A DNA stretch of 64,000 bases, taken from contig DKVF01000031.1 of the NCBI GenBank assembly GCA_002491065.1, positions 19,946-83,945 on the forward strand, written 5' to 3'. A program made the translations under genes and the position numbers. Position 1 is the stretch's first letter. Every line of letters begins with the position of its first letter. Origin of the DNA: Peptococcaceae bacterium UBA7185. GTDB lineage: Bacteria; Bacillota; Peptococcia; Peptococcales; Peptococcaceae. Below are positions 2,784-22,432 of this stretch, piece by piece. A model generated the notes under the pieces. It saw nothing but the letters and a program-made list of their open reading frames with translations, made no database searches and was not told the DNA's origin.

Positions 2784-2801
2784 GCCTGAGAGGTGAAAAT
2801 T

Positions 2802-3155
2802 ATGAAAGTACGTCCAAACCGGATTGGGGAGGAAATCAAAAAAGAACTGGTTTTATTGATTCGCAATGGGATAAAGGATCCCCGTGTGGATAGTCTGATT
2901 AGTATTACGGATGTGGAAGTGACCAGAGATTTGAGCTATGCCACAGTGTATATCAGTCGGTATGGCTCTGAGACAGAGCGCAATGACGCGCTGGAAGGCA
3001 TGAAGGCCGCAGCCGGTTTTATGCGCAGTGAACTGAGCAAGCGATTAAAGTTGCGGACTGTGCCTGAATTGATTTTTAAACTGGATGATTCTCTACAGTA
3101 TGGCGCAAAAATTGAAACGATTTTGCAGCAGATTCACAGAGAACAAAACGACTAA
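2802..3155 (+). CDS. rbfA: Ribosome-binding factor A
   Basis: MKVRPNRIGEEIKKEL... is a typical RbfA N-terminus, and the gene lies directly after infB. ATG 2802 is 6 nt after GAGAGGTG. The ORF-track GTG at 2793 lies inside that SD. Confidence 0.9.
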   Translation: MKVRPNRIGEEIKKELVLLIRNGIKDPRVDSLISITDVEVTRDLSYATVYISRYGSETERNDALEGMKAAAGFMRSELSKRLKLRTVPELIFKLDDSLQYGAKIETILQQIHREQND

Positions 3156-3183
3156 ATAGGAAAGAGTTACAGGGGGAAACACA

Positions 3184-4170
3184 ATGCAGCAGGTACTGGT
3201 GCAAATAAAAGAAATCCTGCTTAACCAGAAGTGTGTTGCTATCATTTCACACAACAATCCTGATGGCGACACACTGGGTTCCCAGCTGGCATTAGCCGGT
3301 GCATTGGGAGAAGCGGGGATTGCTTCCATTCTCATCAATAATGATAAGATTTCTGAAAAGTACCATTTTGTTGCTGGTTCTACTAACATTCGGCCCTACA
3401 ATGGGGATATGGAAATTCCGCAGGTTGTCGTCTTTGTGGATTGCGCCGATTTGGAGCTGGCAGGCTGCAATGGGCACACAGAATTTCTAAAAGGGCGCAC
3501 TATCATTAATATTGATCATCATACCAGCAACAAACAATATGGGCATGTAAACTATGTAAAAGGCGAAGCCGCAGCTAATTGTCAAAATATGTATGAAGTC
3601 ATCACGGCATTAGGAGTAGATATGACAGCGGAGATAGCCACTGCACTCTATATGGGATTGAGTACAGATACAGGAAATTTCCTTTTTGATAATGTATCAT
3701 CAGACACGTTACGTATTGCCGCTGAGTTAAAGGATTGCGGAGCAGATACCAATAGTCTGCGGCAAAAGCTGTATGAAAGCAATTCACATAAACGCATTGA
3801 GCTACTCAAATATATTTTGAATGAACTGCATATTTCCCAAAATGGAAAATGTGCTTGGAGTAAAATTGATTATGGGATGATGCAGCGTTTACAGCCTGAC
3901 AGTACAGATATTGACGGACTGGTCAATACCATTAAGGATATAGAAGGGGTAGAGGTTGCCCTGTTGTTCCGCGGTGTGGAAGCACATAAGACAAAAGTAA
4001 GCCTGCGCAGTAAAGTATGGGCGGATGTGAATGCAGTTGCCGGACTATTTGGGGGCGGCGGTCACATGAGAGCGGCAGGATGTACAATCAATGGAACGGT
4101 AGAAGAGGCTGCGGAGCGCTTAGTGCCTGCAGTGGAAAAATATCTTGAAGAAATGGAACAGCAGCCATGA
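3184..4170 (+). CDS. nrnA: DHH/DHHA1 phosphoesterase (bifunctional oligoribonuclease / pAp phosphatase NrnA-like)
   Basis: Motifs HNNPDGDTLGS, NIDHHTSN and GGGGHMRAAG. SD AGGGGGA lies 6 nt upstream. Position between rbfA and truB is conserved. Confidence 0.85.
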   Translation: MQQVLVQIKEILLNQKCVAIISHNNPDGDTLGSQLALAGALGEAGIASILINNDKISEKYHFVAGSTNIRPYNGDMEIPQVVVFVDCADLELAGCNGHTEFLKGRTIINIDHHTSNKQYGHVNYVKGEAAANCQNMYEVITALGVDMTAEIATALYMGLSTDTGNFLFDNVSSDTLRIAAELKDCGADTNSLRQKLYESNSHKRIELLKYILNELHISQNGKCAWSKIDYGMMQRLQPDSTDIDGLVNTIKDIEGVEVALLFRGVEAHKTKVSLRSKVWADVNAVAGLFGGGGHMRAAGCTINGTVEEAAERLVPAVEKYLEEMEQQP

Positions 4171-5072
4171 AAGATACGACGACAAATGGAATTGTAAATA
4201 TATTGAAGCCAGCGGGCATGACTTCCCACGATGTGGTGGGCAAGCTGCGCAAAATTTATCACACCCGCAAGGTGGGCCATACCGGGACCTTGGACCCCGA
4301 TGCGGTGGGCGTTTTGCCGGTGTGTGTTGGTCAGGCTACCCGTCTGGCAGAATATTTGACGGAAAAAGAGAAAACTTATCGGACCGTGCTGAAATTTGGC
4401 TGCGAGACAAATACGCAGGATCATTCCGGGGAAGTGACAAAGAATACGGCGCTGCCCACCTTGAGCCGAGAAGAATTTTGTGGGGTGACGGCGCAGTTTG
4501 TAGGAGACATTCAGCAGGTGCCGCCGATGTATTCGGCCATAAAAAAGGACGGACAGCCGTTATATAAACTGGCCCGTCAGGGGGTTGACATTGCGCTGGA
4601 AGCACGGCCGGTGACAATCCATGAGATAAAGGTACTGCTGTACAATCAGGAAAGCGCCATGCTGGAGGTGCGCTGCAGTAAGGGCACCTACATCCGCACA
4701 CTGTGTCAGGATATCGGGCGCGCCTGCGGCAGCAGCGCTTACATGGCTTATCTGATGCGCACTGCCAGCGGAACCTTTGGGATCGCGGACGCAGTGCCTC
4801 TGGCAAAGCTGGAGCAGACGGAACGGCCGGAGCAGTATTTGCGCTCTATGAATGACTGCCTTGCCGATATGCCGGCGCTTTACGCAGCAAATGAACTGAT
4901 GGAGCAGCGTATTTCCAATGGCTTGTCGCAGCGTGTCCCCGGTGTGGAAACTCTGGCGGGGGATACGGTATGCCGTGTTTTGGGGTTAAAGGGACAGCTT
5001 CTGGCCATTGGCTACGTAAGTAGCGGCAGCTTTCAGCCAAACAAAGTGTTTAGGAGTGGTGAAGTTGTATGA
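4167..5072 (+). CDS. truB: tRNA pseudouridine(55) synthase
   Basis: Motifs GILNILKPAGMTSHDVV and GHTGTLDPDAVGVLPV (catalytic Asp motif). The ATGA overlaps the nrnA stop. Confidence 0.95.
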   Translation: MKDTTTNGIVNILKPAGMTSHDVVGKLRKIYHTRKVGHTGTLDPDAVGVLPVCVGQATRLAEYLTEKEKTYRTVLKFGCETNTQDHSGEVTKNTALPTLSREEFCGVTAQFVGDIQQVPPMYSAIKKDGQPLYKLARQGVDIALEARPVTIHEIKVLLYNQESAMLEVRCSKGTYIRTLCQDIGRACGSSAYMAYLMRTASGTFGIADAVPLAKLEQTERPEQYLRSMNDCLADMPALYAANELMEQRISNGLSQRVPGVETLAGDTVCRVLGLKGQLLAIGYVSSGSFQPNKVFRSGEVV

Positions 5073-5974
5073 CGATTTCTAAATTTCGTACCGTTATATT
5101 GGGAAATTTCGACGGGCTACATAGAGGTCATCAGCAGTTAATCAATTTAGGACGGCAGATAGCGGATTCCCATCAGGAGGAACTGGCTGTATTCACATTT
5201 TATCCGCAGATACAGCAGTATTTTGATAAAAATTTTTGTTATCTGCTCACAGAACAGCAAAAAAACAGAGGATTTCAGAAGTTAAAGGTAGACTGGATTG
5301 AGTCCATGCCCTTTACAGAAGAAATCGCGACTCTGTCGCCGGAAGCGTTTGTGGAGAACATTCTGGTAAAAAAACTGCACGCCCGTCATGCAGTCGTGGG
5401 ATTTAATTTTTCCTTCGGCTACAAAGGCGCAGGCAACCCGCAACTTTTACGGGAACTGGGCGCGCGCTACGGGATCGAGGTAACGGTGATGGAGCCCTGC
5501 TATGCAGACGGCGAAGTGGTGAGCAGTTCGGCAATCCGCAAGTATTTGCAGGCGGGCGATATAGAAAAAGCCAATGCCCTACTGGGATATGCCTACAGTA
5601 TCGAAGGACCGGTGGTAAGAGGCAATGAAATCGGCCGCACCATAGGCTTTCCCACTGCCAATATACTGCCGGCAAAGGGAATTCTCCTGCCGGAAAAGGG
5701 CGTATATGCGGCGCGCACCTGGGTGGAGGGCCAATGTTATGACGGCATTTTGAATATTGGAATGCGGCCCACCATTGCCCACAGCATAGGATTAAACATT
5801 GAGGTCAATCTCTTTGACTTTGACAGGGATATTTATGGACAGGTTATTCGCAGTGAGGTACATTATTTTCTGCGTCCTGAGACAAAATTTGACGGCCTGG
5901 ACGGCCTGAAAGCCCAGCTGGAAAAGGATAAACAGCACACAGAAAAACTTTTTGCGGACAGGGAAAATTTCTAA
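5069..5974 (+). CDS. ribF: Bifunctional riboflavin kinase / FMN adenylyltransferase
   Basis: N-terminal GNFDGLHRGH nucleotidyltransferase motif and C-terminal riboflavin-kinase motif GRTIGFPTANI. The ATGA overlaps the truB stop. Confidence 0.93.
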   Translation: MTISKFRTVILGNFDGLHRGHQQLINLGRQIADSHQEELAVFTFYPQIQQYFDKNFCYLLTEQQKNRGFQKLKVDWIESMPFTEEIATLSPEAFVENILVKKLHARHAVVGFNFSFGYKGAGNPQLLRELGARYGIEVTVMEPCYADGEVVSSSAIRKYLQAGDIEKANALLGYAYSIEGPVVRGNEIGRTIGFPTANILPAKGILLPEKGVYAARTWVEGQCYDGILNIGMRPTIAHSIGLNIEVNLFDFDRDIYGQVIRSEVHYFLRPETKFDGLDGLKAQLEKDKQHTEKLFADRENF

Positions 5975-5983
5975 AATTAGTGC

Positions 5984-6012
5984 TTGCAAAACCGCTGGCG
6001 TTCCTGTATAAT
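5984..6012 (+). promoter_or_regulatory. Sigma-A type promoter for rpsO(-pnp)
   Basis: TTGCAA (5984-5989), 17-nt spacer, TATAAT (6007-6012). It lies about 90 nt upstream of the rpsO ATG. Confidence 0.6.
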
Positions 6013-6102
6013 TATTAGATATGAACCGTGTGCCCGGTGTGTCGTTCTCCGGCGTATACTTGGCAAGCGGCGATTAAAAAATATTTTTTGGGAGGTGCCA
6101 TC

Positions 6103-6372
6103 ATGGCATTAGATACACAGGCAAAACAGGATTTAATCAAAAAGTATCAGTTACACGAAGGAGACACTGGTTCTCCAGAAGTACAGATTGCGATTTTGAC
6201 CGCAAAAATTACCTATTTGACAGAGCATTTAAAACAACATCCAAAAGATCATCATTCCCGTCGCGGGCTGTTAAAGATGGTTGGTCAGCGTCGTTCTCTG
6301 CTGAACTATGTAAAATCTAAAGATATTGAAAGATATCGCAATATCATCGATGTGATGGGTATCCGTCGGTAG
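6103..6372 (+). CDS. rpsO: 30S ribosomal protein S15
   Basis: [33 protein letters not shown]... is canonical S15 (89 aa). SD GGGAGGTG lies just upstream. The ORF-track start at 6028 is a spurious 5' extension. Confidence 0.97.
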
Positions 6373-6380
6373 TACTGGAA

Positions 6381-6406
6381 AGAGCAGCCCTGGGCTGCTC
6401 TTTTTG
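6381..6406 (+). terminator. Rho-independent terminator/attenuator after rpsO
   Basis: AGAGCAGC-cctgg-GCTGCTCT followed by TTTTT, 9 nt after the rpsO stop. Confidence 0.75.
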
Positions 6407-6459
6407 TGGTTTATTGTTTGTGCAGGTTTTTATCACACAGATGCTTGCTTCGGGGGTGT

Positions 6460-6515
6460 AATTAATAAACAAGAGAAAACTGGCGCGCCAGATAGTTTTT
6501 TCTTGTTTGTTAATT
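6460..6515 (+). promoter_or_regulatory. Long imperfect hairpin in the pnp 5' leader
   Basis: The 5' arm AATTAATAAACAAGAGAAAA pairs with the 3' arm TTTTTTCTTGTTTGTTAATT (two mismatches). The apex is itself palindromic (CTGGCGCGCCAG). No U-tract follows, so it looks like a processing or regulatory hairpin rather than a terminator. Confidence 0.5.
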
Positions 6516-6556
6516 GCTCCGCCGAGTGGCAGTATTTTATTTTTAGGAGGAGCAAC

Positions 6557-8668
6557 ATGGGAAACGTTTTGAAAAAATCCATCCAGGTGGGTGGGCGCGC
6601 TTTGACACTGGAAACAGGGCGTATGGCAAAACAGGCCAGCGGCGCAGTATTCTGTACTTATGGTGACACCGCTGTACTGGTAACGGCAGTGGGCGCCAAA
6701 GAACCGAAGGAAGGCGTGGACTTTTTTCCGCTGACCGTAGATTATGAAGAAAAATTGTATGCAGCAGGAAAAATTCCCGGCGGCTTTTTGAAACGGGAAG
6801 GCAAAGCCAGCGAAAAAGCCATTTTGTGTAGCAGACTGATTGACCGTCCCATTCGTCCGTTATTTCCAAAAGGCTATCGGAATGATGTGCAGGTAGTGGC
6901 CACAGTTCTATCCGTGGACATGGACAATACACCGGACGTGCTGGCCATGGTGGGCGCATCAGCAGCACTGCACTTATCACAGATTCCTTTCATGGGACCT
7001 ATTGCTGGCGTGGTAGTAGGACTGGTGGATGGTGAATTTATCATCAACCCCAATCAGGAGCAGGAAGCTAAAAGCTTAATGCACCTGACCGTAGCGGGAA
7101 CTGCCGATGCCGTGATGATGGTGGAAGCAGGTGCAAAAGAAGTGCCGGAAATGACCATTCTGGACGCCATCATGTTTGGCCATGAGGAAATCAAGAAGAT
7201 TGTCGCTGCCATTGAAGAATTCCGGGCAGAAGCGCTGGCTTTGGAATTGGCAAAAGAAAAAGAAATGCCTGAACTGAAAGTGATTCCGGAAGAAATCGAA
7301 GCAGCAGTCAAAGAATATGCCTATGACAACCTGCTGGAAGCCATTCGCATCAAAGAGAAACATGCCCGCGATGCAGCAGCAGAGGCTGTCAAAGAAGAGG
7401 CTATACAGCATTTACTGGAACAATTCCCTGAGCAGGAAGAAGATTTGCGGGCAGCTCTGGATAGTCTGATGAAATATATCGTGCGCCGTTTGATTACAGT
7501 CGACAAGATTCGTCCTGATGGCAGAGAGATGACAGAAGTTCGGCCTATCACCTGCGAAGTAGACATTTTGCCTCGCCCTCACGGCAGCGCACTGTTTACC
7601 CGTGGGCAGACACAGATTCTTTCCAGCGTTACCTTGGGTGCTGCCAGAGAAGAACAGATTTTAGATGGTTTGGACAATGAAAGCAGCAAACGCTATATTC
7701 ATCACTACAATTTCCCGCCCTACAGCGTAGGAGAAGCCCGTCCCATGCGCGGTCCGGGCCGTCGTGAAATCGGGCACGGCGCTTTGGCAGAACGGGCCTT
7801 GGAGCCTGTCATCCCCAGCGAAGAGGAATTCCCATACACCATTCGTGTGGTATCCGAAGCGTTGGAATCCAACGGCTCCACTTCCATGGGCAGTGTGTGC
7901 GGCAGTACTATGTCTCTGATGGCTGCTGGTGTTCCCATCAAACGGCCGGTGTCTGGCGTGGCTATGGGCTTGATTCGGGAAGAAAACGAATTCAGCGTAT
8001 TGACAGACCTACAGGGATTGGAGGATGCGCTGGGCGATATGGACTTTAAAGTGGCTGGTACCACCGAAGGGGTTACCGCCATTCAGATGGATATCAAAAT
8101 TGCCGGTATCAACCGGGCCATTCTGGAGCAGGCGCTGAAACAGGCCCATGACGGCCGTATGTTCATTTTGGGCAAGATGCTGGAAGCAATTCCTGCTGTA
8201 CGTCCGGAGCTGTCCAAATACGCACCGCGTATCATCACCATGATGATCAACCCGGATAAGATTCGCGACGTCATTGGCGCCGGCGGAAAGGTTATCAAGA
8301 AGATTGTAGAAGATACCGGCGTGAAGATTGACATTGAGGATGACGGACGGGTTATGATTATGTCCAATGACGCGGAAGCCTCTGCAAAAGCTGTGAAAAT
8401 TATCGAAGATCTGGTGCGCGAGGTGGAAGTAGGTCAGGTATATCTGGGCAAAGTCGTACGCATCACCGACTTTGGCGCTTTCGTAGAAGTATTGCCGGGC
8501 AAAGACGGTCTGGTACACATTTCTCAACTGGCCCTGGAACGGGTGAACAAGGTAGAAGATGTGGTAAAAGTAGGTGACGAAATTCTGGTAAAATGTACAG
8601 AAATCGATAAACAGGGACGGGTAAATCTCTCCCGCAAGGTATTGCTGAAAGAACAGCAAGGTAAATAA
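6557..8668 (+). CDS. pnp: Polyribonucleotide nucleotidyltransferase (PNPase)
   Basis: Starts [27 protein letters not shown]. Two RNase PH-like halves plus KH and S1 ([28 protein letters not shown]). SD AGGAGG is at 6545-6550. The ORF-track start at 6404 is a 5' extension. Confidence 0.97.
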
Positions 8669-8681
8669 TGATAACAGTGAG

Positions 8682-8716
8682 AAACGGGCACAGTATAAGA
8701 GCTATGCCCGTTTTTT
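8682..8716 (+). terminator. Rho-independent terminator after pnp
   Basis: AAACGGGCA (8682-8690), 14-nt loop, TGCCCGTTT, followed by a T-run (TTTTTT). Confidence 0.75.
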
Positions 8717-8869
8717 GGTTTGTGCAAAGAGGCATTATTTTTGTCAGGTTATCTTGTATTCTTTTCCAAAACTTCAGTAGAATAGCGTTCTTTTTGCGAT
8801 TTTCTGTTGTAATTTTCTTTATAATTTTGCATAATAGAAAGAAGAAAAACAGAAAAAGAGGGTGGCAGG

Positions 8870-11800
8870 ATGGGCAATATTGTCAATGCGTTACAGGGAA
8901 TTTTTGAGCAAAATGTAATCAGCGAGTTTTTTTTGCAGCAGCCAGATTTGCTGCTGCGGCAGGCCCAGGAGCAGCAGGAAAAGCTGAAATCGGGCCTGGC
9001 ACTGTTGTTAGCGCAGCAGCAATGGACTTGCGATGATATATTGGAGTTGTGTCGGGACATTTGTCCCCAGTGGTATGAGGAGACGCCGGAAAAAGGCTGG
9101 TTGGAATTTACCTATTGGTATATTATCAGCTGGTCCTATCCCGAGAGTGTGTTTCTTGAATTTCCCGAGCGGTTTCAGCCGGGGATGCATTTTTTCATGC
9201 GGGTGCTGCGCTGTGCGTTGGATTATGGAGCGATGCACAAGACATTTGACCCGTTTACGGATTTTTCGTTTTTACCGCTGGACACGCTGCCGGATCATGT
9301 GATTAAAGAGGAATATGAACGGTTTTTGTACTATTTTCGCAAATATTATATCTATGAGCTGATGTACATCGGCAAGGAAATCTTTTTCTTCAACACGTTG
9401 AGCCATATTGCCGGTGTGCATTATGTGGCCATGCATGTGGCCCGTCAGCTGAAGGAAGCCGGCGTGCCTATCAATCTGGCTCTGGTCAGCGGTGCGGCAG
9501 TGGGGCATGATATCGGCAAGTTTGGCTGCAAGCCCAGCGAAATGAAGCGGATGGCCCATTTGCATTATTATTATACCGGGCAGTGGTTTGAGGAAAAAAA
9601 TATGCCTACTATCGCCCATATTGCGGTGAACCATTCTACATGGGATTTGGAGCTGGAAAATTTGCCGCTGGAATCTCTGGTGCTGATTTATGCGGATTTC
9701 CGTGTGCGGCGGGATGATGCTGCCGATGCGCCCAAGGAAAAAATGGGCATCTTTACGCTGAAGGATTCTTTTCATATCATTCTCAGCAAATTGGAGAATG
9801 TAGATGTGGCCAAGGAGCGGCGTTATCGCTATGTCTATGCCAAGCTGAAGGATTTTGAGGATTATATGGAGAGTCTGGGGGTGAATACCGATTTCACCCG
9901 CAGCACGCTGACGCCCACTGTGCCCAAGCATATCGCTCTGGTGGATGCCCAGGAGGCCATCACCAATTTTAAATTTTTAGCTATTCGCCATAATATCTGG
10001 ATGATGGAGTTCCTCAATACAGAAACTTCTTTCGGGACGCTGCTGGAAGCGGCGCGCAGTGAAAAGGACTGGAAAAACACCCGCGCCTATATTCATATTT
10101 TTGAGGAATATTATACGTATATGACGCAGCGGCAAAAAATCATGACGCTGAACTTCCTGTATGAGCTCCTGATGCACCGGGAGGGCGATATTCGCCGCCA
10201 GGCAGCTACGCTGATGGGCCATATTATTCTGCGCTACGATGAGATTTACCGCAAGGAGCTGCCGGAGGATATCACGCTGCCGGTAGGACAGACTACTTCG
10301 CTGTCCCTTTGGCACAAATATTTGAGTATGATTGTCATTCCTGACCATAAGATTACGGAGCGCCACAAGCGGTGGCTGGGCTACACGCTGAAAAATATGG
10401 TGACCACGGTGCTGGAGAACTGCCCTGAGCAGGAACGCTATGATTATCTGGATGTGCTGCTGTATTATTATCATGAAGCCCATTGGGATGATGAGGTAGG
10501 ATTTGTTCTCATGGATACGCTGATTGCTGTGCCGCTGGAGCTTTGCGAGCCTTTTCAGATACAGGAGCTGCTGGATTTCACCGCAAATATTCTGAAGCGC
10601 GGGAATATCGAGCTGCAGGCTGCGGCGCTGCGCTTTCTGGAATATGGGGCTTCCTTTAAGGGGATGCTGGATGGCTTCCACAGACAGATTCTCGCCATGC
10701 TGGAATCGTTGGAAATCGGGAAGGTTCCGCTGGGCTTTCACTATAATCTCCGCAATATTTATCAGGCTTTGGGCGCTGACAGCTTGTCTGCTGCGTTCCA
10801 TATGTCGGAGGAGGAAGAGCAAAAGGCGGTGTCGGAGCTGTTTTTGGAAAATCTCAAGGTCGCTACGCCGTGGATGCTGAAGCTGACCAATATTGACTTC
10901 CTCTTGAAGGTTGCCAAGCACCGCGCCATTTCTCTTTTGCAGGTGGCGACCCATCTTTCCAATATTTTGAAGGTGGGAGAGCGCATCAGCGTGCGGCACA
11001 GAGCAGGGCAGGGGCTGGTGGATATTGCGCCGCTACTCACCTTGGAGGAGCGCAACGAACTGGTCATCGAGCTGACCAAAGGGCTGGAAATCGGAGAATA
11101 TGAATTCTCCAAGTATATTCCTGAATATCTGGGACAGATTGCGTTGTATCTCCATCCGAAGGAGCTGGATGAGATTGTGCAGGATTTGCAGAAGCTGCTG
11201 CGCAATGCCAATAATCGGGTGGTATCGGTGGCTTTGAATACATTGGGTGTGATTTTGGAATATTATCCGGCCTATCAGCAGCGCTTCGGCGAGACGGACG
11301 AACTGATAGAGACGCGCCGAAGCACGATTTTGGGGATGCTGTTGAGCGGGTTGTCCAGCTATGATGAAGAGGTGAGCTCGGAAGCCTTTATTGTGCTGGG
11401 GCATCAGCTCTTCGGCTCAAAGCTGTTGTCTTTGGAGGAAAAAAATAAAATCTTTTTCCTGATTTATAAGCGGATGCTCATTCTCATTCATGACAAGGAG
11501 ATGAGCGGCCTGGCCTTTTTCAATCGGGCTGGGTCGCTGAATCATATTTATCGGTTTATTTCTGATTATCTGATGGAGTATGAGAAATTTGACGTGCCGG
11601 AGCTGGAGCGGGTGGCCTTCTTCCCGGGCACCTTTGACCCCTTTTCCTCCAGCCACAAGGGGATTGTGCAGGAGATTCGCAATTTGGGATTTCAGGTTTA
11701 TCTGGCGCTGGATGAGTTTTCCTGGAGCAAGAAAACCCAGCCGCGGATGACTCGCCGACAGATTATCACCATGTCGGTGGCCGATGAGGAAAATGTCTAT

Positions 11801-13741
11801 CTGTTTCCCGACGAGATTCCCATCAATCTGGCCAATGACAGCGATATGGCACGGCTCAAGGGATTGTTCCCCGACAAGGAGGTTTACATTGTGGTGGGCA
11901 GCGACGTCATTTTAAATGCGTCCTCCTATCGCAAGCCGGCTAAGCCCGGCTCTATCCATCATTTCAACCATATTGTGTTCCGGCGGGTGCAGGGCAAGGA
12001 GGAAGAGGAAGCCATCGCGGCGGAAGTGGAAAAGCAGATGGAGGAAACGGTGCGCAATACGATCAAGGGAGAGCTTATTTATCTGACACTGCCTACCTAT
12101 CTGGAGGATATCAGCTCCACGCGGATTCGGGAAAATATTGACTGCAACCGGGATATTTCCAATCTCATCAGTCCTCTGGCGCAAAACTATATCTATCATT
12201 ATGGGCTCTATCTGCGGGAACCGCAGTATAAACCTATTTTGCAGGCTAAGAATATCAAGTTTGATTTTGTGACCGAGGAGAGCTCTTCTGAGGTGTATCA
12301 GCTCCTGGTCAGCTTTGCGCAGATGGATGAGCTGATGGATATGCTCAGTGAGCACTGGCAAAAGCCCGGTGCTACACTGGCTGTGCTGCGGGATGGCAGC
12401 CAGAATGATGGCATCGTGGCCTTTGCCCTTACCTACACCATGGAAACGACGGATATGTACGGGATGTTCCATGACGCGGAGCTGGTGGAATGGCTGCGCA
12501 GCCGTATTTTTGGCAAGACCATGGTTTTGAGCGGTTTGTATGAGCTGCACGGTCATGCTGTAAAAAATGCCTCACAGCTGCTTCTGACGGAAGTGTTGGC
12601 CTATTATCTGGAGCAGGATTATGGCTATGCGCTCTATTGGGGCGAGAAGGCTGAGGGGCTGGAAGAATTGCTGCAGCGTCAGGGCTTCTTACCGGTGCCG
12701 CTGAACCAACAGGAGCAGGGACTTTATCTGGTAGATATGCGTCGGCCGCTGACGTTGATGAAAAATATCGAAACCACCATCAAGGAGCCCTTCAATCGCA
12801 ATGCGCGTTTGCTGGCTGTGGTGGAGCAAAGTCATCGCCGTTTGCAGGAGGCTATGACGGAGCTTTACCCGGGCAGTCTGGTGTTATCTATAGACGCGGG
12901 GATTATGCATCACAAAATGCTGCAGAAGATCACGCGGGCCAACCATGTGCCCAATGAACCTTTGCCGGTGCGCAAACTGGGCAAAAATATGTGTGTGCCC
13001 TTTGGCAAAATCTTGCGCGGTATGGTGGTGCCCAACACAGTGACCAAAACGCTGCACAGTGAGAAGGTGTATGACGGAGATATCAAAAAGTTCACCATTC
13101 AGAACTTCCCTTTTTATTCTACCTTGGAAAATCAGGTGCGCACCATCAAATCCTTTGACCGTCCTGTCATTTTGGTAGACGATTTGCTGCATAAGGGACA
13201 CCGCATTCGCGGTCTGGAGCCCATTCTGCGGCAGGAACAGGTGCAGATTGACCGGATGGTGGTGGGAATTTTGTCGGCTCGGGGCAAGGATTTGATGGCA
13301 GAGCGGGCGTGCCCTGTGGAGAGCGCGTATTTTCTGCCGCGGCTCAAGGGCTGGTATGTGGAATCCACGCTGTATCCTTTTATCGGCGGCGACATGGTAG
13401 CGCGCAATGAGGAGAGCGACGCCAATCTGATTTCCTCGATCAACTTTATCCTGCCCTATGTGATGCCCAGCTATATGAAGGATGTGCCCCGGGAAGCGCT
13501 GTATTATTTTTCTTTAACTTGTCTGGAAAATGTGCATGAAATTTTGCAGGTGCTGGAGGAGGAATACCAGCAGCATTTCGGCCGCCGCCTGACGTTGGGC
13601 CGGTTAGGGGAGGCCATTATCTCCCCGCGCTGTCCTGACAGGGGGAATTGCGGCAGCTACGACAAAAATATTGCTGCTTCTGTGTATGTGCAGGATGATA
13701 TTCAGCGGTTGGTGCGTCTGGAAAGTATTATGGCACGCTAG
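8870..13741 (+). CDS. Very large multidomain protein: HD phosphohydrolase + helical repeats + NadD-like nucleotidyltransferase + GNAT-like segment + PRTase-like domain
   Basis: Uninterrupted 1,623-aa ORF with SD GAGGGTGG before ATG 8870. HD signature: HIAGVHYVAMH...GHDIGKFG...HSTWD...YADF. Nucleotidyltransferase: FFPGTFDPFSSSHKG...ISSTRIRE. PRPP-loop-like: RPVILVDDLLHKGHRI. Confidence 0.85.
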   Translation: MGNIVNALQGIFEQNVISEFFLQQPDLLLRQAQEQQEKLKSGLALLLAQQQWTCDDILELCRDICPQWYEETPEKGWLEFTYWYIISWSYPESVFLEFPERFQPGMHFFMRVLRCALDYGAMHKTFDPFTDFSFLPLDTLPDHVIKEEYERFLYYFRKYYIYELMYIGKEIFFFNTLSHIAGVHYVAMHVARQLKEAGVPINLALVSGAAVGHDIGKFGCKPSEMKRMAHLHYYYTGQWFEEKNMPTIAHIAVNHSTWDLELENLPLESLVLIYADFRVRRDDAADAPKEKMGIFTLKDSFHIILSKLENVDVAKERRYRYVYAKLKDFEDYMESLGVNTDFTRSTLTPTVPKHIALVDAQEAITNFKFLAIRHNIWMMEFLNTETSFGTLLEAARSEKDWKNTRAYIHIFEEYYTYMTQRQKIMTLNFLYELLMHREGDIRRQAATLMGHIILRYDEIYRKELPEDITLPVGQTTSLSLWHKYLSMIVIPDHKITERHKRWLGYTLKNMVTTVLENCPEQERYDYLDVLLYYYHEAHWDDEVGFVLMDTLIAVPLELCEPFQIQELLDFTANILKRGNIELQAAALRFLEYGASFKGMLDGFHRQILAMLESLEIGKVPLGFHYNLRNIYQALGADSLSAAFHMSEEEEQKAVSELFLENLKVATPWMLKLTNIDFLLKVAKHRAISLLQVATHLSNILKVGERISVRHRAGQGLVDIAPLLTLEERNELVIELTKGLEIGEYEFSKYIPEYLGQIALYLHPKELDEIVQDLQKLLRNANNRVVSVALNTLGVILEYYPAYQQRFGETDELIETRRSTILGMLLSGLSSYDEEVSSEAFIVLGHQLFGSKLLSLEEKNKIFFLIYKRMLILIHDKEMSGLAFFNRAGSLNHIYRFISDYLMEYEKFDVPELERVAFFPGTFDPFSSSHKGIVQEIRNLGFQVYLALDEFSWSKKTQPRMTRRQIITMSVADEENVYLFPDEIPINLANDSDMARLKGLFPDKEVYIVVGSDVILNASSYRKPAKPGSIHHFNHIVFRRVQGKEEEEAIAAEVEKQMEETVRNTIKGELIYLTLPTYLEDISSTRIRENIDCNRDISNLISPLAQNYIYHYGLYLREPQYKPILQAKNIKFDFVTEESSSEVYQLLVSFAQMDELMDMLSEHWQKPGATLAVLRDGSQNDGIVAFALTYTMETTDMYGMFHDAELVEWLRSRIFGKTMVLSGLYELHGHAVKNASQLLLTEVLAYYLEQDYGYALYWGEKAEGLEELLQRQGFLPVPLNQQEQGLYLVDMRRPLTLMKNIETTIKEPFNRNARLLAVVEQSHRRLQEAMTELYPGSLVLSIDAGIMHHKMLQKITRANHVPNEPLPVRKLGKNMCVPFGKILRGMVVPNTVTKTLHSEKVYDGDIKKFTIQNFPFYSTLENQVRTIKSFDRPVILVDDLLHKGHRIRGLEPILRQEQVQIDRMVVGILSARGKDLMAERACPVESAYFLPRLKGWYVESTLYPFIGGDMVARNEESDANLISSINFILPYVMPSYMKDVPREALYYFSLTCLENVHEILQVLEEEYQQHFGRRLTLGRLGEAIISPRCPDRGNCGSYDKNIAASVYVQDDIQRLVRLESIMAR

Positions 13742-13793
13742 GGGACAGGGCGCAGTTTCGGCGGCGAATCAGAAAAAGGGGAAATTGCGCCGT

Positions 13794-13821
13794 ACAGCGC
13801 CGGGGATGCACTCGGCGCTGT
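13794..13821 (+). terminator. GC-rich hairpin downstream of the megaprotein gene (weak terminator candidate)
   Basis: ACAGCGCCG-gggatgcact-CGGCGCTGT forms a 9-bp stem. The trailing sequence CACTTTATG is U-poor. Confidence 0.35.
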
Positions 13822-13841
13822 CACTTTATGAGGAAAAAGCA

Positions 13842-13870
13842 CTGCTGTGTTTACCAGTTTGTGGTATAAT
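13842..13870 (+). promoter_or_regulatory. Candidate extended -10 promoter for the LDH-like/flavoprotein/folA operon
   Basis: TGgTATAAT (13862-13870) with a poor -35 (CTGCTG), about 75 nt upstream of ATG 13944. Confidence 0.35.
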
Positions 13871-13943
13871 AGAGAGTATGAAATGAACGTGCGTATATCG
13901 CAATGAATGGAAAGGCGAACGGAATGGGAGAAAGGGAGGCGGA

Positions 13944-15200
13944 ATGATGTTTTACTATCAGGTGCAGGATGAGGTTTTAGTTTCCCGCGAAGCGTTGGCG
14001 GGTATCAGGGAAATCACAGAGGAGGAGGCCAGCAAGGCGCAGCGGTTGATTTTTCTCAGCAGGCGGGCAGGCGCAGGCAAGGCGGCCTGGCTGGTGAGCC
14101 ACAAAGCCTATTTGGCTGAGGCGGAAGAAGGGCTGTGGTGTCTGGATGGTAATCAGCAGGATGTGTTGGCGCAAAAGGTCCAGGATGTGCCTCAGTGGTT
14201 GGAAGAAAAAATTGCCGCTGGTGGTGTGATGGGCGTCTGCGCTGATTTGGCCCAGGCACAGGAGCTGCTGGCGCGAAAGGAGAATGCAGACAAAAAGGTT
14301 GTACATATTTTGGCTATGGGCGATGTGGGCAGCACGGTACTGATGGCACTGGCTCTTTTGGGCGGGGATTGTGTGCGAGAATTGGGCATCTATGATTTCA
14401 ACGAAAGACTATGTCAGCGCTGGGAGCATGAAATCAATCAGATTGCCTATCCGTGGGCCTATGACTGCTTGCCTGCGGTGCGGGTGCTGACAGAGGACGA
14501 ATTGTTTCAGTGTGATGTCTTTGTCTTTTGCGCCTCCAAATCCATTCCGGCGATTGGGGCCGATGTGCAGGATGTGCGCATGGCTCAATATGAGGCCAAC
14601 AGTGCCATCATCAGCCGTTACGGCGTGCTGGCCAGAGAAGCGGGATTTCAGGGCCTGTTCGCGGTAGTGTCCGATCCGGTGGACCAGCTGTGCTGCAGCG
14701 TGTGGCGCGCCAGCAATCGGGATGCACTGGGAAATTGGGATGGCAAGGGACTGAGGCCGGAGCAAGTCCAGGGCTATGGGCTGGGTGTGATGAACAGCAG
14801 GGCCGCCTATTACGCCAAGCAGGATGCACGGTTTCAGTCATTTCTCACTGAGGGCAGAGCATACGGTCCCCACGGGCAGCAGCTGGTCATTGCCAACAGT
14901 GTAACCCACTATGACCACGCATTGTCCATGGAATTGACCAGGCTGACGGTAGAGGCCAATTTGGAGATACGGGCGCTGGGCTACAAGCCCTATATTGCGC
15001 CAGCGGTGTCCTCGGCGGCCATTTCCCTTTTGTTGACTTTGCGGGGAGAATGGCATTACAGCTCAAACTTTTTGCACGGAATCTATATGGGTGCCAAGAA
15101 TCGCAGTACCAGAAACGGTTTGGAGCTGGAGGCGCTGCCTTTGCCGCCGCAGCTTTTAGCCCGCCTGGAGGCAGTGGCAGCGGAGCTGGAAAAATACTAA
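13944..15200 (+). CDS. LDH/MDH-superfamily 2-hydroxyacid dehydrogenase-like protein with ~115-aa N-terminal extension
   Basis: KVVHILAMGDVGSTVLMALALLG...ELGIYDF (Rossmann), VVSDPVDQL (LDH NPVD-like) and YGPHGQQ (catalytic His position). SD AGGGAGG precedes ATG 13944. Confidence 0.7.
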   Translation: MMFYYQVQDEVLVSREALAGIREITEEEASKAQRLIFLSRRAGAGKAAWLVSHKAYLAEAEEGLWCLDGNQQDVLAQKVQDVPQWLEEKIAAGGVMGVCADLAQAQELLARKENADKKVVHILAMGDVGSTVLMALALLGGDCVRELGIYDFNERLCQRWEHEINQIAYPWAYDCLPAVRVLTEDELFQCDVFVFCASKSIPAIGADVQDVRMAQYEANSAIISRYGVLAREAGFQGLFAVVSDPVDQLCCSVWRASNRDALGNWDGKGLRPEQVQGYGLGVMNSRAAYYAKQDARFQSFLTEGRAYGPHGQQLVIANSVTHYDHALSMELTRLTVEANLEIRALGYKPYIAPAVSSAAISLLLTLRGEWHYSSNFLHGIYMGAKNRSTRNGLELEALPLPPQLLARLEAVAAELEKY

Positions 15201-15238: not shown

Positions 15239-16321
15239 ATGGACGGAGCGGAAAAGGAATTATTGGTGATCATGCCGAAGGATGCACAGCAGACAGAAAA
15301 TGCAAGGCTGGATGCCGTGCTGGCCCAGGCCATTGCCGGATATGATACGGAATTTTGGTACGAGGAACGAGAGTTTGTACCCTTAAAAAATCGACGAATC
15401 CTTTTTGTACTCAATCTAGGCGCCGACGGTGTCAATCTGGAATATCAGCGATTACTGCGCTGGTTGCGGCGTAGCCCCGGGTGCCTGGAGGGTTGTGTGG
15501 GCTCCGTCTTACTTGACGCAGACAGCGAGCTCTACACCAAAGCAGAGGGGCGGGAGCTTGTGTTTGCTGCCAACGGGCAGGGTTGCATATTTCCCGGGAA
15601 ACCGCTGGTGGAGGGTACTGCTTCTCTGGACAATTTTCTGGTGCAGTCCCGCAATCTGGGGGTAGATTGCATGGGCGCATACCGGCAGGCTGCCCGCATG
15701 CTAGTGGAGCAGCTGCTGGCCTTCCAGTTGCCGCTGCGGCGAAAACCGCAGATTTTGGCTGTGCATGCCAGCAATCGGGCCACCTCCAACACGTTGACTT
15801 TGTGGCGGAAGGTGCGGCAGCATTTGGAGGATAGCTGTACCATTCAGGAGATTCCTCTGCAAAATGGAACGGTAGTGGATTGCAATGGCTGTCCTTATCA
15901 GACCTGTCGGCACTTTGGCGAAACCTGTAGCTGTTTCTATGGCGGTGTGATCGTGGAGGAAGTGTATCCTGCTATTTTGGATTGTGATGCGCTGATTATG
16001 CTGTGCCCCAATTATAATGATGCGGTGAGCGCCAATCTTTCCGCCTTTATCAATCGGCTGACAGCGCTGTTCAGTCAGGTGCGCTTTTATGACAAGGCGG
16101 TGTTTTGTCTGGTGGTATCGGGCTACAGCGGAGGCGATATCGTGGCCAAGCAGGTGCTGGGCGCTCTGAATATGAACAAGACCTTTTACTTGCCGGCCAA
16201 TTTCGCCTTTTTGGCCACGGCCAACGATCCCTTCAGCATCAATAAAATTGACAGGATTGATGAGCAGGCGGCAGACTTTGCGGAAACTATCCGCAAGCAT
16301 TTACAGGAAAGGCGGGTATAG
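15239..16321 (+). CDS. Flavodoxin-fold NAD(P)H-dependent FMN reductase / iron-sulfur flavoprotein-like protein
   Basis: C-terminal half: ILAVHASNRATSNT...DALIMLCPNYNDAVSANLSAFINRL (FMN-reductase-like), plus Cys cluster CNGCPYQTCRHFGETCSC. The N-terminal ~170 aa looks like a second degenerate flavodoxin-like half. The start is uncertain (weak SD; alternative ATG at 15272). Confidence 0.6.
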   Translation: MDGAEKELLVIMPKDAQQTENARLDAVLAQAIAGYDTEFWYEEREFVPLKNRRILFVLNLGADGVNLEYQRLLRWLRRSPGCLEGCVGSVLLDADSELYTKAEGRELVFAANGQGCIFPGKPLVEGTASLDNFLVQSRNLGVDCMGAYRQAARMLVEQLLAFQLPLRRKPQILAVHASNRATSNTLTLWRKVRQHLEDSCTIQEIPLQNGTVVDCNGCPYQTCRHFGETCSCFYGGVIVEEVYPAILDCDALIMLCPNYNDAVSANLSAFINRLTALFSQVRFYDKAVFCLVVSGYSGGDIVAKQVLGALNMNKTFYLPANFAFLATANDPFSINKIDRIDEQAADFAETIRKHLQERRV

Positions 16322-16323
16322 AC

Positions 16324-16803
16324 ATGATGCATCTCATCGCAGCAGTAGCGGAAAACGGGATCATCGGCAAAGACGGCGGGATTCCCTGGCATATTCCTGC
16401 CGATTTGGCCCATTTTAAGGCGCTTACATGGGGACAGACTGTGATTATGGGGCGGCGCACCTATGAGAGCATTGGCCGCCCGTTGCCTGGACGGCGGAAT
16501 ATCGTGGTGTCCACCACATTGCAATCTTTAGAGGGATGCAGCGTAGCGGGCTCCTTGCAGGAGGCGCTGCATCTGGCCAGCGAAACAGGCGGGGAGATTT
16601 TTATCATCGGCGGCGCACGCCTTTATGAAGAAGCGCTGCCCTTGGCACAGCAGCTGGATTTGACCCTGGTGGCAGGCAGACCGGAAGGAGATACCCGCTT
16701 TCCCGCCGTGGACTGGGCCAACTTTCGGGAAGTGGCGCGCGTCGCCTGCGACAGCGTGCCAGGCTGCCAGTTCGTCACCTATGTGAGAGGGGAAGCTCTT
16801 TGA
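16324..16803 (+). CDS. folA: Dihydrofolate reductase
   Basis: MMHLIAAVAENGIIGKDGGIPWHIPADLAHFKALTWGQTVIMGRRTYESIGRPLPGRRNIVVS is canonical DHFR. It begins 2 nt after the upstream stop. Confidence 0.93.
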   Translation: MMHLIAAVAENGIIGKDGGIPWHIPADLAHFKALTWGQTVIMGRRTYESIGRPLPGRRNIVVSTTLQSLEGCSVAGSLQEALHLASETGGEIFIIGGARLYEEALPLAQQLDLTLVAGRPEGDTRFPAVDWANFREVARVACDSVPGCQFVTYVRGEAL

Positions 16804-18233: not shown

Positions 18234-19916
18234 TTATTCATCACGCAGGAATTCCATATATGGTGAGCTGTATTTAGTCATGGCATTGACAATCAGTTCC
18301 ACCAATCCGCCGTAATGAACGTTGTAGCGGTGTAGACCATAATGCTCAATGATATCACGCATAGCGCCTTTGCAGTTGGAGCATGGTGCACAGATATATT
18401 TTGGAATATCGGTGTTTTCCATAACTTCAGGACCGAATGCTTCCAGGATCTGTTCTAATTTTTTACGATGGGCAATATTATTGCGCCATTGTGGGAAGCT
18501 CATGGACTGCATAATTGCGAAACCGGAACCGCCGCCGCAGCAGTAGTTGTTCACACCGTGGTCCTTCATTTCGTAGTAAGGCAGGCCCATGTTGCCATAG
18601 TGCCCTGGCTTCATGATTGCTTTCAGGATATCACGCTGTGGTTTTACAATACCCATCTGACGAACATAGTTACATGGGTCATGCAATACAACAGGGAAGT
18701 CGTTGCGGTTCGGGTCAATCTGGAAGGTGCCGCTCAATACCAAATCACGCATCAAAGGCAGGAAGCTCTGTACTGGTACACGGTCGCTGCCTGGATAGTA
18801 GCGGTCTGCCATGATGGCAGCTGCTTTGTGGGCATGGCCGCATTCTGCGATTACGATACGTTTTACGCCTAATTTTTTAGCAACTTCGTTCTGTTTTACA
18901 GCGACTTTTTTGCACTGTGCGTCATCATACCACAAGCCGTAGTTTACGTTGTCATAGCCGCAGATATCGCTGGATAAGGTCCAGGACAGACCAGCTTCCT
19001 GGAACAGCATGGTAAATGCCATAGGGTTTTCAGGCCATGCGTTAAATTCACCGGCATTGTGGATGAGCAGAATGTCAGCACCTTCTACGTCCATTGGTGT
19101 TTTGTATTCGGTTACGCCTTCGCCGAACAAATCGGTAGCGTCTTCATCCAAAAATTCTACAGTGTCCAGGAAAGGAACCTTGGACATACCGGTGGAAGAA
19201 CCGGTTTTTAACTGCAGCTGTGTTCCTTTTTCATGTAATGGTTTTGGAGCGTAGCCCATTTCCTGGCTGAAAATTTTACGAATTTCACGGGCAATCAGAC
19301 CATTGTCCAAAGCCAACGGACAGGTTTGCGCGCAGCGACGGCACAGGTTGCAGCGGTAGGACAGTTCGCCCAGACGTGCTACAGTTTCCCAGTTTAAGTC
19401 GATATCGCCGCCTACGAATTTTACCATAACGCCTTTTTTGCCGCCAGGAATTAATTTGCCGTTTTTGTCGAAATATTTTTTCACAATCATACGCAATACT
19501 TCAGCGCGGTAGGTAGGACGATATAGTTCATTGCCGTTGGAGGCTTCAAAGATGTGGCAAGCGCCGGAACAAGTGTTGCATTTAGCGCAATATTCCATGG
19601 TCAGGTTTAATACCTGCATGATACCGCCGTTGGTATCCAGCGACAGCATTTTTTCTACGCCGCGCAGAAATTTCTGTACCAGTTCGTCTTCTTCTTCTTT
19701 GGTTTTTGGTCTTTCAAAGGTATCAATGGCGATAAAACCATCTAGTTCACTGTTATATTTTTCATTCCACTCGGCTTTTGGTGCTTTAAAACCTGGTTCC
19801 ATCTCCGGTTTGTCAAAAGGAGCCGGCAACGGTTTTAAGTCAGCGACGGTCAGTTCAATTAACTGCTCAGACATGTCGCCCATATCGCGCGGTCTTAACT
19901 CTTTACCGTTTTTCAC
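18234..19916 (-). CDS. DsrK/HdrD-like Fe-S oxidoreductase (2x[4Fe-4S] ferredoxin motifs + CCG cysteine-rich domains)
   Basis: CAKCNTCSGACH and CNLCRRCAQTCP, followed by the CCG-type motifs HDPCNY and NNYCCGGGSG. GTG 19916 is 7 nt after GGAGGA. Confidence 0.8.
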   Translation of the reverse strand: MKNGKELRPRDMGDMSEQLIELTVADLKPLPAPFDKPEMEPGFKAPKAEWNEKYNSELDGFIAIDTFERPKTKEEEDELVQKFLRGVEKMLSLDTNGGIMQVLNLTMEYCAKCNTCSGACHIFEASNGNELYRPTYRAEVLRMIVKKYFDKNGKLIPGGKKGVMVKFVGGDIDLNWETVARLGELSYRCNLCRRCAQTCPLALDNGLIAREIRKIFSQEMGYAPKPLHEKGTQLQLKTGSSTGMSKVPFLDTVEFLDEDATDLFGEGVTEYKTPMDVEGADILLIHNAGEFNAWPENPMAFTMLFQEAGLSWTLSSDICGYDNVNYGLWYDDAQCKKVAVKQNEVAKKLGVKRIVIAECGHAHKAAAIMADRYYPGSDRVPVQSFLPLMRDLVLSGTFQIDPNRNDFPVVLHDPCNYVRQMGIVKPQRDILKAIMKPGHYGNMGLPYYEMKDHGVNNYCCGGGSGFAIMQSMSFPQWRNNIAHRKKLEQILEAFGPEVMENTDIPKYICAPCSNCKGAMRDIIEHYGLHRYNVHYGGLVELIVNAMTKYSSPYMEFLRDE

Positions 19917-19940
19917 AATACATTCCTCCGTTTCAATTGA

Positions 19941-20849: not shown

Positions 20850-20971
20850 TCTAGTACCTCCTTGGTTTTTTGTAATTGTTTTGTGCGTCCTGCCATTTGC
20901 CGCCCACTGCACCGCCTGATGTACAGCTGTATGAAACAAAAGGTCATTCACGCAAAATCCTACTAACTATC

Positions 20972-21712: not shown

Positions 21713-22432
21713 ATGTTACGTATCGCAATTTGTGATGATGAGGACAGCGCAGTTGCAGAACATAAAAAAATTACAGAAGCCTGTTTGCAGCAATGCGGCA
21801 GTGCAGGTGAAATTGTGACCTATACTGCTGGGGACAATCTGCTTTATGACATCACCGAAGATGATTTTTTCTTTGATTTGATTTTGTTGGACATAGAGAT
21901 GCCAGGAAATACCGGCATGGAGATTGCTGCGAGTATAAAGCCTTGTTTGCCCAATGTGAAAATAATTTTTATAACCTCGCACATTGAATACGCAATCGAC
22001 GCCTTTGAGCTGTCTATTTTTCGCTATGTGCCCAAGGATGAAATTGATAAACGGCTGTTTTCTGCCATTCAGGACGCCATTAAGCTTATCACCTTGGAGG
22101 ACGGTAAGGTTTATACCATTCAGACGAACAGTCGTCTGGAAAAGATTCCCTATCGGGAGATTTATTATATTGAGCGGGAAGGGAAAAACGCGAAAATTTC
22201 CGCAGCCGGCGGTGTGTCCAAGGTGCGGAAGAGTTTGCAGCAGGTTTATGAAGAATTAAACGCGGAAGAATTTATCTATATTGACCGGGGCTGTATCGTG
22301 AATCTCATCCACATTATGCAGATAAGAGATGGGATGGCTGTTCTGAAGAATGGCATGTCACTGCCCATAAGCCGTACCCATCTGCAGGGCGTGAAGGCGC
22401 AGCTCAACAACTACTGGGGGATGCATATATGA
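21713..22432 (+). CDS. LytTR-family response regulator
   Basis: Receiver domain (MLRIAICDDED...LLDIEMPGNTGMEIA) plus a C-terminal LytTR DNA-binding pattern (IYYIEREGKNAKI...YIDRGCIVNL). Confidence 0.9.
   Translation: MLRIAICDDEDSAVAEHKKITEACLQQCGSAGEIVTYTAGDNLLYDITEDDFFFDLILLDIEMPGNTGMEIAASIKPCLPNVKIIFITSHIEYAIDAFELSIFRYVPKDEIDKRLFSAIQDAIKLITLEDGKVYTIQTNSRLEKIPYREIYYIEREGKNAKISAAGGVSKVRKSLQQVYEELNAEEFIYIDRGCIVNLIHIMQIRDGMAVLKNGMSLPISRTHLQGVKAQLNNYWGMHI

Follow-up and report, generated by a model that had tools for sequence, protein, structure and literature searches.

We analyzed a 64,000-nt stretch of contig DKVF01000031.1 from Peptococcaceae bacterium UBA7185 (assembly GCA_002491065.1, positions 19,946–83,945 of the forward strand), hereafter the window, which carries a large gene for a 1,623-amino acid (aa) protein predicted to join an HD phosphohydrolase domain, a helical solenoid, a NadD-like adenylyltransferase, a GNAT-like segment, and a type I phosphoribosyltransferase (PRTase)-like domain on a single chain. 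This gene heads a conserved and tightly packed three-gene operon, as seen from gene order, in which the two genes directly downstream encode a divergent dehydrogenase and a two-domain flavoprotein (Table 1). A first-pass annotation, read from the letters alone, had already listed the five domains on a single polypeptide, and this inventory holds, with support that differs from one domain to the next. It also knew of no characterised protein with this architecture: none was found in a full-text literature search, which likewise returned no description of the family. Overall, the domains are individually known, while the architecture and the operon are uncharacterised.

Table 1 Features of the large gene, its operon, and its surroundings. 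Positions refer to the window and aa ranges to the 1,623-aa protein.
Feature	Position	Strand	Details
Large multi-domain gene	8870..13741	+	1,623 aa plus stop; homologues mostly ~1,600–1,650 aa
N-terminal helical region and HD phosphohydrolase domain, aa 1–345	8870..9904	+	HD core aa 177–276; Pfam HD; DVU_1551-family model; HDIG
HEAT/ARM-type alpha-solenoid, aa ~360–905	9947..11584	+	AlphaFold model; Foldseek; weak Pfam HEAT and Adaptin_N
NadD/NMNAT-like adenylyltransferase domain, aa 914–1115	11609..12214	+	Motifs FFPGTFDPF-SxS-H929-K and ISSTRIR
GNAT-fold segment, aa ~1125–1295	12242..12754	+	Least conserved part of the large protein; Foldseek
Type I PRTase-like C-terminal domain, aa 1300–1623	12767..13738	+	VPFGKIL..VPNTVTK; LVDDLLHKG(H/Y)R; YPFIGGD
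Partner 1, divergent LDH/MDH-superfamily dehydrogenase	13944..15200	+	418 aa; Pfam Ldh_1_N and NCBIfam L-LDH, both below cut-off
Partner 2, two-domain flavoprotein	15239..16321	+	360 aa; Pfam FMN_red; alignment A5
Intrinsic terminator of upstream pnp, dividing pnp from the large gene	8679..8716	+	Hairpin and U-run; dG -21.3 kcal/mol, z -4.97
Sigma-70-like promoter match, 5' of the large gene	8807..8835	+	TTGTAA-17-CATAAT; consensus match only
Strong hairpin between the large gene and the LDH-like gene	~13794..13821	+	Folding computation; no clear U-tract
infB, rbfA, DHH/DHHA1 (nrnA-like), truB, ribF, rpsO, pnp cluster, directly upstream	135..8668	+	
Dihydrofolate reductase gene, 2 nt after partner 2	16324..16803	+	Pfam DHFR_1, E 2e-52
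Redox gene pair	18234..20951	-	Proteins of 560 and 336 aa
Overlapping open reading frames	21713..23727	+	239 and 432 aa

The large gene is a real and intact coding sequence under selection. It forms one unbroken, ATG-started open reading frame (ORF) with zero internal stops, both in the ORF listing and on translation, and its ATG is directly preceded by the purine-rich Shine-Dalgarno sequence GAGGGTGG, confirming what the first-pass annotation had read by eye. The flanking hairpins noted there were both recovered as well, the upstream one as the pnp terminator and the downstream one without a good U-tract. The latter is one of two strong hairpins in the 202-nt spacer (13742..13943) between the large gene and the next gene, a gap with a median of 16 nt elsewhere, and these hairpins may represent an attenuator or processing site particular to this lineage. 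Promoter-like sites around the large gene were not more numerous than in shuffled sequence. The possibility that separate genes were run together or joined by faulty assembly, which the first-pass annotation had named as a way to be refuted, has practically no probability left: nothing was found in its favor, and it is effectively refuted already. Specifically, 59 contigs of independent origin (NCBI, Logan, and ENA assemblies) encode the identical 1,623-aa protein, and a mouse-gut metagenome-assembled genome (MAG) labelled "uncultured Peptococcaceae bacterium" (L004) was 100% identical to the window over the compared segment. A database search returned >7,800 homologues, the best 120 of which were nearly all ~1,600–1,650 aa long and covered 96–100% of the query. 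The same five-part architecture also occurs in isolates and complete genomes from many genera; complete genomes with the gene include CP141728.1, NZ_CP133078.1, NZ_CP097810.1, and NZ_CP092441.1, and Anaerotignum and Clostridium sp. ASF356 are among its carriers. Conservation runs unbroken along the whole protein and through every domain junction, and both AlphaFold half-models of the protein reached a high predicted template-modeling score (pTM).

Among the five domains, the adenylyltransferase is strongly assigned by fold and homology as NadD-like. Pfam CTP_transf_like matched it above its cut-off (E 1.5e-6), and its best matches were the NCBIfam NadD models (NF000840 and TIGR00482, E 4e-9), which scored below their equivalog cut-offs (36.3 bits versus 150 and 34.6 versus 112.45). 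Bacterial NadD structures were the top Foldseek matches of the C-terminal model (E 6e-8, target TM 0.64–0.76), and a 98-sequence profile aligned by hhalign to E. coli NadD with 97.3% probability over 193 columns, spanning NadD columns 5–213 of 213. Pfam, Foldseek, and hhalign thus uphold the NadD/cytidylyltransferase-fold module of the first-pass annotation, though not as a NadD equivalog. Sequence searches of PDB, whether started from the full-length protein or from a profile built on 65 sequences, returned weak NadD and PPAT matches only, and none for the HD or PRTase-like parts. Both HIGH-class ATP-binding motifs are kept, i.e., SxxH929 and ISST-R-I-R1087, and among 73 long representatives the transferase residues are nearly constant (H929 in 66, R1087 in 72, D1012 in 69, and Y1020 in all 73). 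The (S/T)xxH version of the GxFxPxH-type motif is the one also found in eukaryotic NMNAT and PPAT. The acceptor side differs: the E. coli NadD residues PPHR45-46 and W117-Y118 are replaced by WSKK and (A/S)-Y, respectively, and across 97 representatives the position of W117, which we take to be a ring-stacking acceptor-site residue, is Ala or Ser, never Trp, and never aromatic. Because the PPHR and W117 positions have changed, the acceptor probably differs from that of NadD, and the domain is best described as a probably active transferase of NadD type with an altered acceptor pocket. On its low scores and its replaced acceptor-site Trp, the large protein is predicted to be neither a housekeeping NadD nor a NadD equivalog. 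It thus shares with NadD and NMNAT a HIGH-class nucleotidyltransferase fold, homology over the whole of E. coli NadD, and the ISSTxxR motif, and differs in that the module is embedded within a protein of 1,623 aa and scores far below the equivalog cut-offs.

For the N-terminal domain, assignment as an HD phosphohydrolase has good support from profile and motif evidence. In the window protein, Pfam HD matched aa 177–276 below threshold (E 0.008–0.03) with a near-complete profile; all five family members searched were matched over the full-length profile, one of them above the gathering score. In the 65-sequence alignment, H179, H213, D214, H255, and D276, which occupy the HD-superfamily motif positions, are invariant, so that the HD core of the first-pass annotation is borne out. 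The nearest NCBIfam model was the DVU_1551 family NTP transferase (NF045665), again in five of five members (E 4e-8 to 3e-3); these matches were confined to the C-terminal part of the model (positions ~170–314 of 359), scored far under the family cut-off of 315 bits, and left the N-terminal part of the model unmatched anywhere in the large protein. The DVU_1551 family is, to our knowledge, uncharacterised. No YqeK model appeared among NCBIfam matches at E ≤ 1 for the whole protein and five HD segments, and by this comparison the domain is not of YqeK type. The first-pass annotation had drawn on the adjacency of nadD and yqeK in most Firmicutes; because the HD domain matches no YqeK model, that argument becomes one of analogy and not of orthology.

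The ~550 aa of helical repeats that follow the HD domain are strongly predicted to form a HEAT/ARM solenoid. The AlphaFold model of aa 1–905 is all-helical and confident (predicted local distance difference test 90.5, pTM 0.87), and the top Foldseek matches of aa ~360–905 were the PP2A A subunit, importins, SF3B1, CAND1, and designed armadillo proteins (E ~1e-5), giving the helical repeats noted at first pass a recognizable fold. Conserved patches within the solenoid include HREGDIRRQ and LEIGEYEFSKYIPEYLG. By fold, the solenoid comes closest to HEAT-repeat scaffolds, among them importin-beta and the PP2A A subunit; unlike these, the large protein is bacterial and carries enzymes fused at both ends of its solenoid, and sequence similarity to them is negligible (10–17%).

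Evidence for the C-terminal PRTase-like domain is weak but consistent, and points to a divergent type I member. With Pfam Pribosyltran, sub-threshold matches were obtained in 4 of 18 close members (best E 0.008) and in 6 of 8 distant ones (best E 8e-4). All five PDB matches of a diverse profile (A6) were to PRT-fold proteins, namely HPRT, a "phosphoribosyltransferase", PRPP synthetase, and two XPRTs (E 0.17–1.4), and hhalign gave 38% over 66 columns against E. coli Apt. The weak matches all fall at the region of the 5-phosphoribosyl pyrophosphate (PRPP) loop, VILVDDLLHKGHR. The AlphaFold model of aa 905–1623 is confident and shows this domain as an alternating strand-helix (alpha/beta) fold; the best 50 Foldseek matches listed for that model, from PDB and from viral structures, were taken up by NadD and GNAT proteins, the viral ones being GNAT/NMNAT only. 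A narrow profile of the domain (A3) retrieved a single irrelevant PDB match, and hmmsearch with the PRTase-like profile against all ORFs of the fetched loci found no canonical PRTase. A by-eye idea that the domain is of PurF type found no support, as hhalign against E. coli PurF aligned the PRPP loop only, at 0.7–3.8%.

The PRTase-like domain is also the best-conserved part of the family and is present in all architectural classes. V1376, P1377, P1388, T1392, D1437, P1503, and G1507 are invariant, and in the acidic pair D1437-D1438 the first residue is invariant and the second is kept in ≥90%, even among relatives ≤42% identical. The VILVDD of the PRPP loop is kept, but (H/D)KG(H/Y)R stands where PRTases have their phosphate-binding T-G-x-T. 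Of the type I PRTase-like module proposed at first pass, the superfamily signal recurs, whereas every match is sub-threshold and the phosphate-binding threonines are gone. Compared with type I PRTases (HPRT, APRT, XPRT, PRPP synthetase) and PRT-fold regulators (PyrR, PurR), the large protein has the same succession of hydrophobic strand, acidic pair, loop, and helix at the place of the PRPP loop; it differs from type I PRTases in its family-specific invariant loops (VPFG...PNTVTK and YPFIGGD) and in a ~90-aa helical C-terminal extension.

The segment between the adenylyltransferase and the PRTase-like domain is supported as GNAT by its modelled fold only, with sequence support that is nearly nil. 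Foldseek matched it to NAA60 and TmcA/NAT10 in PDB and to dozens of viral GNATs in BFVD (target TM 0.55–0.75). In Pfam the only match was Acetyltransf_10 at E 0.12. A motif-B-like RQGF is invariant; the acetyl-CoA motif A (Q/R-x-x-G-x-G/A) was not recognisable, as the loop between strand 4 and the helix is variable and has no conserved Gly in the alignment consensus. The fold proposed at first pass thus stands and the sequence motif does not, although acetyl-CoA may be bound through backbone amides.

We then surveyed gene neighborhoods of the homologues, as suggested at first pass. In 65 loci with enough downstream sequence, both partner genes lay directly 3' of the large gene in 62 by ORF clustering, and tblastn added one more (L012), i.e., ~63 of 65. 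Median gaps are 16 nt between the large gene and the LDH-like gene and 2.5 nt between the LDH-like gene and the flavoprotein gene, with frequent overlaps. A systematic search across the loci found no further conserved neighbor beyond these two. Public names of the partners are generic ("lactate dehydrogenase" and "flavodoxin family protein"), and PADLOC defence-system models matched none of the three operon proteins at E ≤ 0.01. The conserved operon, the HD-less relatives, and the PPDK_N-linked paralogues described below did not figure in the first-pass annotation; all three are new here, and together with the other architectural variants the partners are the most informative context for the large protein.

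Both partners have the marks of redox enzymes. Partner 1 matched Pfam Ldh_1_N at E 1e-4 and NCBIfam L-LDH at E 6e-6, the latter far below cut-off. Its alignment (A4) contains a Rossmann motif in which beta-2 is followed by an Asp, as is typical of enzymes that prefer NAD over NADP. R212 and H310 are invariant and correspond to R109 and H195 of LDH. In a by-eye and hhalign mapping, the position of LDH Asp168 is Asn and the Arg171 equivalent is off by one residue; the hhalign comparison of the LDH-like family with E. coli Mdh was itself uninformative (1.4%), and its aligned residues agree with the by-eye mapping. Partner 2 matched Pfam FMN_red with 72 bits against a cut-off of 24 (E 4e-20). It also has four invariant cysteines (C215, C218, C223, and C232, pattern CxxCx4Cx8C) that probably form an Fe-S or metal site. 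Its N-terminal extra domain of ~165 aa had no Pfam match and looks flavodoxin-like by eye.

Beyond the shared operon, the surroundings vary. The infB–pnp neighborhood upstream in the window is not common to large-gene homologues in other genera. The dihydrofolate reductase gene appears as a fourth operon gene only in the closest, Peptococcaceae-labelled loci (L004, L007, L008, and L012) and not in the other ~60. At another locus (L003, 17330-19566), the operon is followed by mgtE, Pfam-checked there only and present at 13 loci by clustering, and then by a Carb_kinase gene (9 loci). NAD(P)HX dehydratases belong to the Pfam family Carb_kinase, which may tie the operon loosely to NAD(P)H metabolism, but these loci are probably phylogenetically non-independent.

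Next, we evaluated the extent and variety of the family. Searching 1.84 billion representatives with the PRTase-like profile gave 447 clusters (50% identity) at E ≤ 1e-3 and 344 at E ≤ 1e-10, and relatives occur at no fewer than 519 places in species-representative genomes, mostly of anaerobic Clostridia and including many gut isolates and MAGs. Four architectural classes could be distinguished. The dominant class (a), ~1,550–1,680 aa, contains the HD domain. Class (b) lacks it: these proteins of ~1,075–1,310 aa begin at the solenoid, have intact transferase motifs, and are followed by overlapping Ldh_1_N and FMN_red genes (P0273 and P0289). At the P0273 locus (1,266 aa; L087, 8001-13855) the operon is followed by BcrAD_BadFG/DUF2229 activase-like genes, and at the P0289 locus (1,075 aa; L088, 8001-13124) it lies downstream of rsmD-coaD. 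Class (c) is likewise HD-less (~1,050–1,300 aa), and its transferase is degenerate in many members, with His changed to Asp and the GxD and ISST motifs lost. At all three class (c) loci checked (P0258, L089 3415-7275; P0297, L092 7001-10198; P0305, L093 7001-10615), an overlapping gene of ~850 aa with PPDK_N, similar to phosphoenolpyruvate synthase and rifampicin phosphotransferase, precedes the large gene, and both redox partners are absent; among these three, the catalytic His is lost in P0297 alone, and P0258 and P0305 keep it with an altered ISST. Class (d) is a divergent HD-containing form without the partners (P0308). The invariant unit of the family thus appears to be a core of solenoid, transferase fold, GNAT-like segment, and PRTase-like domain, with the HD domain as a probable later addition, and an active transferase, as predicted from intact motifs, seems to go with the partnership of LDH-like enzyme and flavoprotein.

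Taken together, the architecture, the near-constant redox partners, the partner swaps, and the domain losses point to an enzyme machine, as yet uncharacterised, that serves nucleotide or cofactor metabolism. The reading that we favor, with a probability of about 0.42, sees the large protein as a machine on a scaffold, which together with its redox partners would build and hydrolyse a NAD-like, adenylylated phosphoribosyl compound. Specifically, the three operon proteins would act as one module with the solenoid as scaffold, and the adenylyltransferase domain would transfer the AMP part of ATP onto a small phosphorylated molecule. The likeliest acceptor would be a 5-phosphoribosyl, i.e., mononucleotide-type, compound, yielding a pyrophosphate-linked, NAD-like dinucleotide. 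The PRTase-like domain could make the mononucleotide from PRPP and a base, or could bind PRPP or a nucleotide for control of the enzyme, while the HD domain would hydrolyse the product or wrong products for turnover or proofreading, and the LDH-like enzyme and flavoprotein would take either the base or the completed compound as their substrate. The chain proposed at first pass, from base to mononucleotide to dinucleotide to hydrolysis on one polypeptide, is plausible within this scheme. A bolder version, to which we give a low probability, holds that the three-gene module makes and recycles a novel adenylylated phosphoribosyl compound, which would be a dinucleotide cofactor or signal of a non-canonical pyridine or flavin type: the PRTase-like domain would form the mononucleotide, the NadD-like domain adenylylate it, the redox partners tailor or use it, and the HD domain degrade it. 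Links to F420, methanopterin, or CoA-type cofactor pathways were also considered and were dropped, as they amounted to loose analogy.

Several observations weigh against the favored machine. A physical complex of the three proteins is proposed from gene order, and there is no riboswitch or other regulatory clue at the large gene, riboswitch and leader searches of the window and seven other loci having found none upstream of it. Some operon-bearing lineages have no HD domain, so that hydrolysis would not be essential to the core function. Similarly, core function may not be adenylyl transfer at all, since many members of the paralogous class lose the transferase motifs yet keep the PRTase-like domain. 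The PRTase assignment itself stayed below threshold in every single test, with the phosphate-binding T-G-x-T replaced, and the GNAT-like segment has no recognisable acetyl-CoA motif.

Known systems offer partial parallels for a machine of this kind. In the minimal mycoplasma, the NadD-YqeK fusion JCVISYN3A_0380 hydrolyses nicotinate adenine dinucleotide and wrong-nucleotide analogues through its HD domain as a form of proofreading (PMC9426524). This fusion resembles the large protein in joining an HD phosphohydrolase and a NadD-type transferase in one chain; in the large protein, the order of the two is reversed, a solenoid of ~550 aa lies between them, the HD domain is not YqeK-type, and GNAT-like and PRTase-like domains as well as two partner genes are added. 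Multifunctional NAD-salvage proteins such as NadR, NadM-Nudix, and the phage pair NadV plus NatV similarly join mononucleotide formation, adenylylation, and pyrophosphate hydrolysis in one protein or operon. Compared to these, the large protein uses HD instead of Nudix and a type I-like instead of a type II PRT, is without a kinase or helix-turn-helix domain, and has a solenoid, a GNAT-like domain, and redox partners in addition.

The same observations can be read in terms of regulation instead of metabolism. Here the large protein would be a regulatory scaffold or sensor whose PRTase-like and GNAT-like parts are ligand-sensing pseudo-enzymes, comparable to the PRT-fold regulators PyrR and PurR, and whose HEAT solenoid holds the partners (LDH-like enzyme and flavoprotein, or PPDK_N in the paralogue); the protein would tune the activity of these partners to PRPP or nucleotide levels, with the transferase and HD activities secondary. 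Such a role would fit a PRTase-like domain that is best conserved in all classes and yet has no canonical phosphate-binding threonines, the missing GNAT motif A, a core that persists with different partners even though some members of one class have a degenerate transferase and two classes lack the HD domain, and a solenoid whose closest fold matches are scaffolding subunits such as PP2A-A. However, the catalytic residues of transferase and HD domain are almost invariant in the main class, and for this reason real catalysis is favored; the acidic pair and conserved loops of the PRTase-like domain also resemble an active or ligand-binding site and not a decayed one. We regard a mainly regulatory role as rather unlikely, though a serious contender.

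A lower probability still goes to a writer and eraser of protein nucleotidylylation after the logic of GlnD and GlnE, in which the transferase would adenylylate a partner, or load it with a nucleotide-derived prosthetic group, and the HD domain would remove the modification. A transferase and an HD hydrolase on the same chain, two dedicated partners in overlapping genes, and a long solenoid of protein-binding type all suit this explanation, but HIGH-class (NadD/PPAT-type) transferases are known to act on small phosphorylated or carboxylated molecules and not on proteins, HD-less lineages retain the partners, and no modification site can be named. Database names would instead make the large protein a housekeeping nicotinate mononucleotide adenylyltransferase, i.e., NadD with extra domains: besides "hypothetical", it is called "nicotinate-nucleotide adenylyltransferase" or "nicotinate-nicotinamide nucleotide adenylyltransferase", and NadD is indeed its closest family by profile, fold, and hhalign. 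This identity is very improbable given scores 4- to 10-fold under the equivalog cut-offs, a residue aligned with W117 that is never aromatic, a patchy distribution within Clostridia that is unexpected for a sole essential NadD, and a transferase that is degenerate in many paralogues.

Taking the "nicotinate-nucleotide adenylyltransferase" label at face value would mis-assign NAD biosynthesis in metabolic models. If the favored machine does make a novel compound, many gut Clostridia would possess a branch of nucleotide-cofactor metabolism that has yet to be described. The architecture is unusual in its five domains arranged around a eukaryote-like HEAT scaffold, with two dedicated and near-constant redox partners. 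Meanwhile, the natural variants of the family, i.e., those that are HD-less, have a dead transferase, or have a different partner, reveal which parts form its core.

Finally, we noted several features away from the operon. In two Anaerotignum loci, T-box leaders lie a few kb downstream of it on the opposite strand (L061 15262-15502 and L065 15232-15474) and are unrelated to it. In the window, the redox gene pair on the minus strand encodes an HdrD/DsrK-like protein of 560 aa with Fer4_8 and CCG domains, together with a 336-aa NarI-like membrane protein, and resembles a membrane redox module of DsrMK/HmeCD type. Further on, the two overlapping ORFs look by eye like a response regulator and a histidine kinase with several membrane passes; an ABC-transporter-like ORF comes next.

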